Source: a virus. From it: a stretch of DNA of 64,000 bases. The notes under the pieces were generated by a model. That model did not search any database. It saw only the letters and a program-made list of their open reading frames with translations, and was not told the origin of the DNA. This document shows, one piece after another, positions 45,809 through 46,153 of the stretch; positions within the stretch are counted from its first letter, which is position 1; each line of letters opens with the position of its first letter. The stretch lies in IMG/VR virus record IMGVR_UViG_3300020577_010320; one strand, given 5' to 3'. The translations under genes and the position numbers were made by a program.

Positions 45809-46153
45809 TCAGGCCGCGGCGAGGAAATCGGCCAGCTGGGCGAAGTCGCGCAGGTCCTGGTCGTCGCCGCCGCCGACCTTCTTCGGCGTGAACATCACGC
45901 GGTCGCCGTCCTGCACGATCTCGCTCGCGGTCGGGCGGAACGTGTTGTCGCCCCGCAGCACGCCGATCGAGTAGTTGCTGGCCTGGGCGCCGGGGAACAG
46001 GAACCCGAACAGGATGCTGTACGTGGTGCCGGCCGGGATCTGCTTGTCCTGGGCGAAGCCCACGTCGTCCGTCTTCGTGACCTTGATGTTGACGTACTCG
46101 TTCGCCATCGTCGTCTTCTCCGTATGGACCTGTTCGAACACACTGCGTACCAC
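45809..46153 (-). CDS. ubiquitin-like beta-grasp protein (ThiS/MoaD-like) with C-terminal extension after GGG
   Basis: ...VNIKVTKTDD...VQDGDRVMFTPKKVGGG|DDQDLRDFAQLADFLAAA*; first gene of Ubl-E2-JAB-E1 operon. Confidence 0.6.
   Translation of the reverse strand: MVRSVFEQVHTEKTTMANEYVNIKVTKTDDVGFAQDKQIPAGTTYSILFGFLFPGAQASNYSIGVLRGDNTFRPTASEIVQDGDRVMFTPKKVGGGDDQDLRDFAQLADFLAAA

Follow-up and report, generated by a model that had tools for sequence, protein, structure and literature searches.

What becomes of a ubiquitin-like protein (Ubl) whose reading frame runs on past the glycine at which a mature modifier should end? This question is raised by a small gene within positions 45809 to 46153 of IMG/VR virus record IMGVR_UViG_3300020577_010320, a 64,000-nucleotide (nt) stretch of DNA to which we refer, at its full length, as the window. 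A first-pass annotation, made from the sequence alone, had described the product as a beta-grasp protein of the ThiS/MoaD/ubiquitin type with a C-terminal extension after Gly-Gly-Gly, and had proposed that a co-encoded JAB peptidase must remove this extension, a step that it likened to ubiquitin precursor processing and called a regulatory checkpoint. Our results suggest that the Ubl is probably an inactive precursor of a ubiquitin-like modifier, encoded in a four-gene phage cassette, whose tail is cut by a JAMM peptidase before the adenylating enzyme (E1) can act.

Reading frame and start of the pro-Ubl gene

The open reading frame (ORF) and the residues after Gly-Gly-Gly are present exactly as they had been quoted: the ORF listing and a translation of the window give, at 45809..46153 on the minus strand, 114 amino acids (aa) from a GTG codon, ending ...VQDGDRVMFTPKKVGGGDDQDLRDFAQLADFLAAA at the stop. 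This GTG is merely the first possible start; translation almost certainly begins at the ATG at 46108, from which the protein has 99 aa, begins MANEYVNIKV, closes its core with ...TPKKVGGG and continues as DDQDLRDFAQLADFLAAA. The ATG is favored because a GGAG ribosome-binding site (RBS) sits 9 nt upstream, because gene callers give the 99-aa product on four independent metagenome assemblies and because the stretch from GTG to ATG is out of frame, through a 4-nt insertion or deletion, in L093, a 7-kb fragment of a diverged relative. The gene and its parts are as follows.

45809..46108, minus strand: pro-Ubl gene, ATG start, TGA stop at 45809-45811, 99 aa
45869..46108, minus strand: beta-grasp core, M1-G80, predicted to end, once mature, at G80, the C-terminal Gly that is invariant in the family
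45812..45868, minus strand: C-terminal tail, G81-A99 (GDDQDLRDFAQLADFLAAA), a predicted pro-peptide of 19 residues
46118..46121, minus strand: GGAG RBS, read from the sequence, 9 nt before the ATG; L093 has GGAG at the equivalent place

The coding sequence and its flanks are identical, base for base, across contigs from four different sequencing runs, and window positions 35809-56108 are 100% identical to L002 and L003 and 99.98% identical to L001. Since the four runs agree, a sequencing error cannot account for the stop codon, and a displaced stop, which the first-pass annotation had itself raised as a doubt, is ruled out. The fraction of G+C at the third codon position (GC3) is 1.0 in the core and 0.94 in the tail, with second-position values of 0.33-0.42 (0.33 in the tail); because third-position G+C in the tail matches that of the core, we regard the tail as translated sequence.

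A beta-grasp fold and a planctomycete family

AlphaFold2, given an alignment of 107 sequences, modeled the Ubl with b-b-a-b-b-b topology at a predicted local distance difference test score (pLDDT) of 80 and a predicted template modeling score of 0.72, and the top Foldseek matches to this model were all Ubl domains, of SUMO or Caldiarchaeum ubiquitin, at a probability of 1.0. The two methods thus agree on the beta-grasp fold that had been claimed for this protein. A single-sequence AlphaFold2 model reached a pLDDT of 39 and was unusable.

Word-index searches with the Ubl and with the second protein of the cassette each retrieved only the query itself. Exhaustive phmmer found 33 relatives of the Ubl, and a profile search found at least 779, nearly all in Planctomycetota or phage-like contigs. 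Species-representative genomes account for 254 matches, again almost all in Planctomycetota and often at several loci per genome, and three IMG/VR viral contigs hold relatives. A search of NCBIfam with the Ubl gave no match; the source annotations of family members read 'MoaD/ThiS family' or 'sulfur carrier protein ThiS', with precomputed Pfam ThiS matches. The family consensus ends ...GDRVSITP-x-K-[IV]-x-G-A, and its Gly, which is G80 of the window protein, is invariant in the 107 aligned sequences and present in all of the 208 unique members, while the residue before it varies.

Tandem Ubls of two or three domains also occur (P0004, P0007, P0009, P0018, P0020, P0022, P0026 and P0030), and K-[IV]-x-G-A is kept at every internal junction. 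Such proteins could be split into monomers, as is polyubiquitin, or left joined, as is ISG15.

The C-terminal tail and the predicted cut site

Residues beyond the invariant Gly are found in 208/208 unique family members, none of which ends at that Gly. The residue that would follow the cut (P1') is Ala in 191/208 (92%) and Gly in 11/208, the two together accounting for 97%. Tail lengths range from 1 to 47 residues: 139/208 members have 1-3, and the 69/208 with 4-47 share no common sequence. An invariant Gly and a conserved next residue, followed by unconstrained sequence, point to a cleavage site with a discarded peptide rather than to a functional C-terminal domain. Having a tail is thus not special to the window gene; what is out of the ordinary within the family is its length of 19 residues and its acidic ...LAAA character (net charge -4, ending in -LAAA).

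These universal tails, together with the JAMM motif and the type II Bil precedent described below, uphold the part of the first-pass annotation that concerns processing, and the case that the tail must be removed by the co-encoded JAB before E1 activation appears well supported, if indirectly, by sequence comparison and by analogy. They do not uphold Gly-Gly-Gly as the cut site, nor the supposed need for a Gly-Gly end: the family motif is K-[IV]-x-G/A (the slash marking the cut), which contains no Gly-Gly pair. The likely cut in the window protein, as predicted from this motif, is GG/G-DDQ..., after G80, rather than GGG/DDQ.... As for the proposed checkpoint, these data do not favor regulated processing over constitutive maturation.

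Several long tails have a simple origin. The string 'KG..WEPDN.ST.CT', shared by long tails (proteins P0072 and P0138 and loci L027, L029, L037, L056, L065, L069, L078, L085 and L087), comes from out-of-frame translation of the following gene's AAAGGAG RBS, its ATG and its initial codons, and in these genomes the Ubl ORF extends into the beginning of the E2-like gene. We therefore rejected WEPDNxST.CT as a functional tail peptide, since it is the RBS, ATG and N terminus of the next gene in another frame. Since tails are hypervariable, and since some merely reflect the Ubl frame running on into the downstream gene in a frame other than that gene's own, the tail would seem to be a disposable piece that is taken off. 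In L093, the Ubl reads ...KKTAGG and then VDLGGGQYDALTLELIALAVS, with 22 residues past the invariant Gly; this tail is acidic and Ala/Leu-rich and is not alignable to that of the window protein. A conserved amphipathic helix was also considered for the tail and rejected, as its hydrophobic moment does not exceed that of shuffled sequences and the L093 tail lacks such a pattern.

An -AA end is present in 22/69 tails of at least 4 residues (32%), compared with 5/221 other proteins from the same loci (2%; Fisher p 3e-11, a value inflated by relatedness), and these ends are often -LAA or -RAA. A C-terminal -LAA is reminiscent of the ssrA tag for degradation. By analogy, the -AA end suggests that the unprocessed precursor, or the freed peptide, may be sent to degradation.

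Gene order and partner proteins of the cassette

Downstream of the Ubl gene on the minus strand lie genes for a Cys/zinc-finger protein, a JAMM peptidase and a minimal E1, in that order.

44126..45709, minus strand: 527-aa HPH...Cys protein with a C-terminal CxxC array, GTG start; candidate E2/E3-like transferase
42503..44047, minus strand: 514-aa JAB/JAMM metallopeptidase; predicted pro-Ubl processing enzyme and deconjugase
41729..42487, minus strand: 252-aa minimal E1, a ThiF-fold adenylating enzyme (Pfam ThiF, 1.2e-26)

Among the 61 related loci that extend far enough, 53 have the partner genes, 52 of these in the order of the window, which is also that of Bil operons; the Ubl of the related loci is always followed by an E1-containing cassette. 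The same order of Ubl, Cys protein, JAB and E1 is found in a Gimesia island adjoining an integrase and in phage-like contigs. In L093 the order is GP88, a small gene, Ubl, Cys protein, JAB and E1, as in the window, with cassette proteins that are 33-42% identical to those of the window. Since the order is kept at this level of divergence, the cassette is an old and stable part of the phage lineage and no recent pickup.

The JAB peptidase to which the processing had been ascribed is real: the residues E97...H157-x-H159...S167...D170 are kept in 67-69 of 69 family members. It matches Pfam Prok-JAB weakly (19.2 bits against a cutoff of 25) and nothing in NCBIfam, and its family profile reaches Rpn11 in the PDB at 2e-4, the best solved relatives being Rpn11 and the Caldiarchaeum Rpn11 homologue. 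The phage protein is much longer than its bacterial counterparts (514 compared with about 180-390 aa), with two extra CxxC clusters and a lysine/arginine-rich stretch at residues of about 330-470, past the catalytic domain.

The E1 scores 93.8 bits against Pfam ThiF (cutoff, 28.1). Its best match in the PDB is the active adenylation domain of Uba1 (5e-10), followed by UBA5 and then ThiF. G49xG51xxG54, D73, D138 and C198 are kept in 57-59 of 59 members, and C198 is the putative counterpart of the Cys in the crossover region of ThiF and MoeB.

The 527-aa protein is the second gene in 52/61 family loci. H188-P-H190, C198, G200 and W241 are invariant in its family, with the Cys 7 or 8 residues past HPH, and the HPH-x7/8-C-x-G motif comes after a predicted strand-rich region. 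This spacing recalls the HPN-x8-C of UBC enzymes, and the CxxC array gives weak matches to FYVE, RING and C1 zinc fingers. An E2 role for this protein, which we infer from motif and gene position only, is the weakest step of our proposal. Two phage-like contigs, L006 (8319-10775) and L008 (8331-10693), have two paralogous HPH-Cys/zinc-finger genes in tandem between Ubl and JAB, which suggests diversification of the presumed target-selecting component.

Candidate regulatory DNA around the cassette

Three non-coding elements flank the genes of the cassette.

46169..46239, minus strand: conserved non-coding block upstream of the Ubl gene, holding ATCACGTCATAATATACTGTGC and AATAGTGCTGCG; candidate promoter or operator
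45730..45770, minus strand: hairpin and T tract between the Ubl gene and the next gene, from a terminator-like scan; candidate attenuator or partial terminator
41691..41716, minus strand: GC-rich hairpin after the E1 gene (-25.6 kcal/mol, z -4.5); candidate operon terminator

The upstream block, of about 70 nt, is near-identical to positions 2847-2917 of L093 even though the proteins of the two cassettes are only 33-42% identical, and it may be a promoter or operator. There is no second copy in the window, and its being unique led us to reject a general phage promoter; an RNA element was likewise rejected, as there is no significant fold and no Rfam match.

The hairpin after the Ubl gene folds at -28 kcal/mol (z -6.5). 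Its counterpart in L093 (3322-3372) has a different stem and an identical tail, TGTCTTTTAGTCTTTGG. Across 85 loci, 73% have a hairpin of -25 kcal/mol or lower (in 45 nt) within 110 nt after the Ubl stop, whereas random segments, or stretches that follow the E2-like or JAB genes, reach 5%, and the median best 45-nt fold after the Ubl stop is -29.9 kcal/mol. This hairpin is probably an attenuator or a stabilizer of a transcript 3' end that leaves the Ubl in excess over the enzymes.

Phage setting and neighboring genes

The genome that carries the cassette occurs as contigs of 74-77 kb in several metagenomes, and the phage is probably one of Planctomycetota. The window contains a gene of the GP88 family known from mycobacteriophage, a dCTP deaminase and an RNA ligase, together with a multisubunit-type RNA polymerase, in which beta (Rpb2_6) and the N-terminal part of beta' (Rpb1_1/2) are fused in a protein of 1457 aa and the remaining beta' is a separate protein of 627 aa.

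59037-63410 and 55257-57140, minus strand: multisubunit-type RNA polymerase genes, from domain matches
35804-37276, minus strand: C1 protease gene
25999-28812, minus strand: VWA protein gene
30314-31501, minus strand: RNA ligase gene

The nearest full-length relatives of the polymerase share 28% identity with it and come from Vibrio and Salmonella phages of 180 kb, whereas the present genome is about 75 kb. Searches with the cassette by megablast and tblastn of 50,697 deposited phage genomes gave no match, nor did scans of IMG/VR with single proteins. The same phage-like genome encodes a papain-family C1 cysteine protease (E 2e-53), a VWA-domain protein of 937 aa and the RNA ligase. At 40804-41556 on the minus strand, past the E1 terminator hairpin, lies a gene for a 250-aa protein with a hydrophobic N-terminal region and no family match; it is outside the conserved cassette at other loci.

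Nearly half of the window (1-30000, minus strand) is occupied by a single paralogous family of about 70 tandem small genes with a median length of 76 aa and stops every 190-330 bp. Their products share an end, ...VW.LLPGG, about 15 residues and [DN]ELF[TV][YF]DEEG before the stop, with a strictly terminal Gly and a highly variable remainder; five members scanned against Pfam gave no match. A link between these ELFxYDEEG genes and the cassette was considered and is unsupported, as they show no similarity to the Ubl profile and none lies near the cassette in other loci.

About 30 planctomycete loci (among L005 and L013-L092) have, on the same strand upstream of the Ubl, a conserved AAA ATPase (~498 aa), another protein of ~321 aa and some small proteins. 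The small proteins of L005 include a DUF2997 protein, and an integrase and an HTH_17 gene follow its cassette. These bacterial neighbors (the AAA ATPase, the 321-aa protein and others) have no counterpart in the phage window.

Discussion

Taken together, our results are consistent with the following course of events. The 99-aa protein is predicted to fold as a beta-grasp domain, and its 19-residue tail would, as follows from E1 chemistry, block the carboxylate of the invariant Gly80. The co-encoded JAMM peptidase would then cut the G80-G81 bond, a step suggested by the family-wide tails, the JAMM site and the G/A cut of type II Bil. The E1 would adenylate Gly80 and probably form a thioester on its Cys198, after which the Ubl might be passed to the invariant Cys198 of the 527-aa protein and conjugated to a protein; this is the least secure part of the scheme. 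The zinc-finger array of the 527-aa protein would select the targets and, by analogy, the JAMM peptidase may also reverse conjugation. In this scheme, the Ubl is probably produced in excess of the enzymes by virtue of the hairpin that follows its gene.

A number of observations weigh against this reading. Beyond fold and motifs, cleavage, adenylation and conjugation are steps that we infer from sequence. Neither UBC proteins nor a Bil E2 came up in the PDB search with the 527-aa profile, comparison with 8 human E2s by hhalign gave a probability of 0.8%, none of 73 members of its family matches Pfam UQ_con or Prok-E2, and the protein matches no NCBIfam or PADLOC family. The E1 also resembles the sulfur-transfer enzymes ThiF and MoeB, with adenyl_thiF as its best NCBIfam match, and the only sequence matches of the Ubl profile in the PDB are to MoaD (E 0.075) and ThiS (E 0.33), both weak. 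None of the four cassette proteins matches a Bil-named PADLOC or NCBIfam model. As for the tail, a helix is predicted at residues 82-98 at a pLDDT of only about 60, its hydrophobic moment is no different from that of shuffles, and no sequence similarity to the nearest relative's tail was detected, the BLAST alignment halting at GG. Because the helix is of low confidence and amphipathicity and similarity to the relative's tail are lacking, a specific regulatory role for the tail is without support.

The affinities with ThiF, MoaD and ThiS raise the possibility of a sulfur-carrier system, in which a Ubl of the ThiS/MoaD/QbsE/CysO type would have its tail trimmed by the JAMM peptidase, be adenylated by the E1 and then carry a thiocarboxylate for small-molecule or nucleic-acid modification by the phage, instead of being joined to proteins. 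QbsD trims the tail of QbsE in this way. The MoaD/ThiS annotations and precomputed Pfam matches of family members, the single ThiF-fold domain of the E1 and the unproven E2 identity of the 527-aa protein all fit such a system. However, neither the window cassette nor the 61 related loci contain a rhodanese, cysteine desulfurase, sulfurtransferase or thiocarboxylate-using synthase, and sulfur-transfer or cofactor-synthesis genes are absent from the window cassette and from the recurrent neighbors of 80 loci. A conserved protein with an invariant Cys (HPH-x7-C) and zinc fingers is present instead, the genes are ordered as in Bil conjugation operons, the E1 scores higher in the PDB against the adenylation domains of Uba1 and UBA5 than against ThiF, and tandem Ubls of two or three domains are typical of Bil and Bub modifiers and not of sulfur carriers. 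Hence, a sulfur carrier appears improbable. More improbable still is that the tail is retained and that the protein serves as a non-covalent adaptor or assembly factor with a C-terminal helix, in the way proposed for the Ubl-containing lambdoid tail assembly protein I, while JAB and E1 act elsewhere. Tail-assembly modules do include phage Ubls that are paired with a JAB but have no conjugation enzymes beside them (Iyer et al. 2006, PMC1779556), and the Ubl gene here adjoins possibly structural genes, GP88 and those of large proteins without matches. Against this, the Ubl is always followed by an E1-containing cassette, the invariant Gly, conserved P1' Ala and unconstrained tail have the signature of a cleavage site, and no domain architecture of the tail-assembly type was seen.

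Two views of the tail start from the proposed precursor and differ over what the tail does. It may be removed and yet be tolerated junk, its length an accident of stop position, so that maturation would be constitutive and there would be no checkpoint; this is a serious contender, if somewhat short of an even prospect. The hypervariable length and sequence of family tails, the out-of-frame read-through that accounts for several long ones, the end of the BLAST alignment at GG and the low pLDDT and shuffle-like moment of the window tail all favor junk. Conversely, L093, the only close relative, keeps a long, acidic, Ala/Leu-rich tail when two thirds of the family have 1-3 residues, and the excess of -AA ends (32% of tails of at least 4 residues, 2% elsewhere, in a count uncorrected for relatedness) likewise speaks for a function. 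On balance, constitutive maturation of a disposable tail and a tail with a function of its own, be it as a timer, a docking element or a degron, seem roughly equally likely. A more ambitious proposal is that the cassette is a phage-borne, self-contained conjugation machine of a new family that tags host or phage proteins during infection by means of a fused E2/E3-like transferase, the acidic -LAAA tail being a functional pro-peptide, such as a timer or degron that holds the uncut Ubl inactive or makes it short-lived; in this full form we consider it rather unlikely. An artefact, whether a stop displaced by a sequencing or assembly error or a chance ORF, is suggested by the 63% GC of the window and by spurious long ORFs that overlap the locus (e.g., one of 437 aa at 44856-46169). 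Its probability is negligible given identical DNA in four independent assemblies, 779 homologues, a confident fold prediction, coding-like GC3 and conservation of the RBS, the upstream element and the downstream hairpin.

JAB-dependent maturation of a Ubl is already established for type II Bil. What is new, as far as we have checked, is the planctomycete/phage family, the fused Cys/zinc-finger component and the location in a phage; in a literature check that covered work other than that of Burroughs et al. 2011 on prokaryotic RING fingers, we found no paper on a phage-encoded cassette of this kind or on the planctomycete family. Bacterial Ubl conjugation systems characterized so far are anti-phage defenses (Bil and the Cap2 of CBASS) or stress systems (Bub). 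A complete cassette of Ubl, E1, JAMM and Cys protein kept in a phage lineage, with conserved regulatory DNA of its own and retained in a relative at 33-42% protein identity, would hand the same chemistry to a virus. The Ubl family is large (at least 779 proteins) and appears uncharacterized, and the current 'MoaD/ThiS' and 'sulfur carrier' labels on its genes are probably misleading. As all of its members are precursors, it offers a clean natural system for the study of JAMM-dependent Ubl maturation and of the age of precursor processing in the ubiquitin lineage.

Comparison with known systems

Eukaryotic ubiquitin, SUMO and NEDD8 resemble the window Ubl in that C-terminal extensions or fusions are removed by a dedicated peptidase before E1 acts, the same class of peptidase also serving in deconjugation. 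They differ in that cysteine proteases do most of the processing, a Gly-Gly pair forms the mature end and the extensions are either short or whole fused proteins. The QbsE/QbsD and CysO/Mec+ clusters likewise pair a small protein of beta-grasp fold with an adenylating enzyme of the ThiF type, and in them, too, a JAMM peptidase trims the C terminus; these clusters differ in containing sulfur-transfer and biosynthetic enzymes and in lacking a conserved Cys/zinc-finger transfer protein. In Caldiarchaeum, the ubiquitin is a precursor processed by an Rpn11 homologue. This system turns up both among the structural neighbors of the Ubl and among the sequence matches of the JAB family, and the Ubl of Caldiarchaeum subterraneum is bound by a JAMM/Rpn11-type peptidase (PDB 6fno, 6fnn and 6fjv). 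However, the archaeal UBC-type E2 and small RING E3 are separate genes, and the modifier is a true ubiquitin with a Gly-Gly end.

As early as 2006, Iyer et al. predicted that phage and bacterial Ubls are cut by JAB proteins at their terminal Gly. The lambdoid/T1 pair of protein I (Ubl) and protein K (JAB) shares with the present cassette a phage beta-grasp domain with a conserved terminal Gly, more sequence after it and a predicted JAB cut. Unlike the cassette, the pair lacks an E1 and a transfer protein and lies within a tail module, and the C-terminal part of protein I is a real domain.

The closest parallels are the bacterial Bil systems. Type I Bil of Collimonas, described by Hor et al. 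(bioRxiv 10.1101/2023.09.04.556158), is an operon of Ubl, E2, deubiquitinase (DUB) and E1 in which the C-terminal Gly is essential, and a minority of homologues have overhangs of 2-9 residues past this Gly. Type I BilA, which has two beta-grasp domains, as a rule stops exactly at the Gly, whereas 0/208 members of the present family do so. Moreover, bacteria use type I Bil against phages, whose tail fiber it tags, whereas the present cassette is carried by a phage.

Chambers et al. (PMC10557695) describe Bil operons with the gene order Ubl-E2-DUB-E1. In Ensifer aridi, BilA ends in G97-A98 and cannot be adenylated in the form in which it is made; BilC, the JAB, cuts between G97 and A98, as found by Edman sequencing and crystal structures. 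PADLOC found only generic CBASS-type JAB and E1-E2 matches in the present cassette, and PDB searches with the E1 and with the JAB and gene-2 profiles retrieved Uba1, UBA5, ThiF and Rpn11 and not the E. aridi Bil chains; by sequence, the present family is not within either Bil type. The likeness to type II BilABCD lies elsewhere, in four components in the same order (Ubl, Cys transfer protein, JAB/JAMM DUB and E1, the E2 identity of the second being unproven) and in residues past the reactive Gly with a G/A cut, a signature present in 92% of the family. In contrast, the E1 here is a single ThiF-fold domain of 220-250 aa and not a multidomain IAD-AAD-CYS protein, HPH-x7-C with a long CxxC zinc-finger array takes the place of the CEHH E2 of Bil, and the tail has 19 residues rather than 1. 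Finally, the family of the present cassette is almost confined to Planctomycetota, and its copy in the window lies in the genome of a phage.

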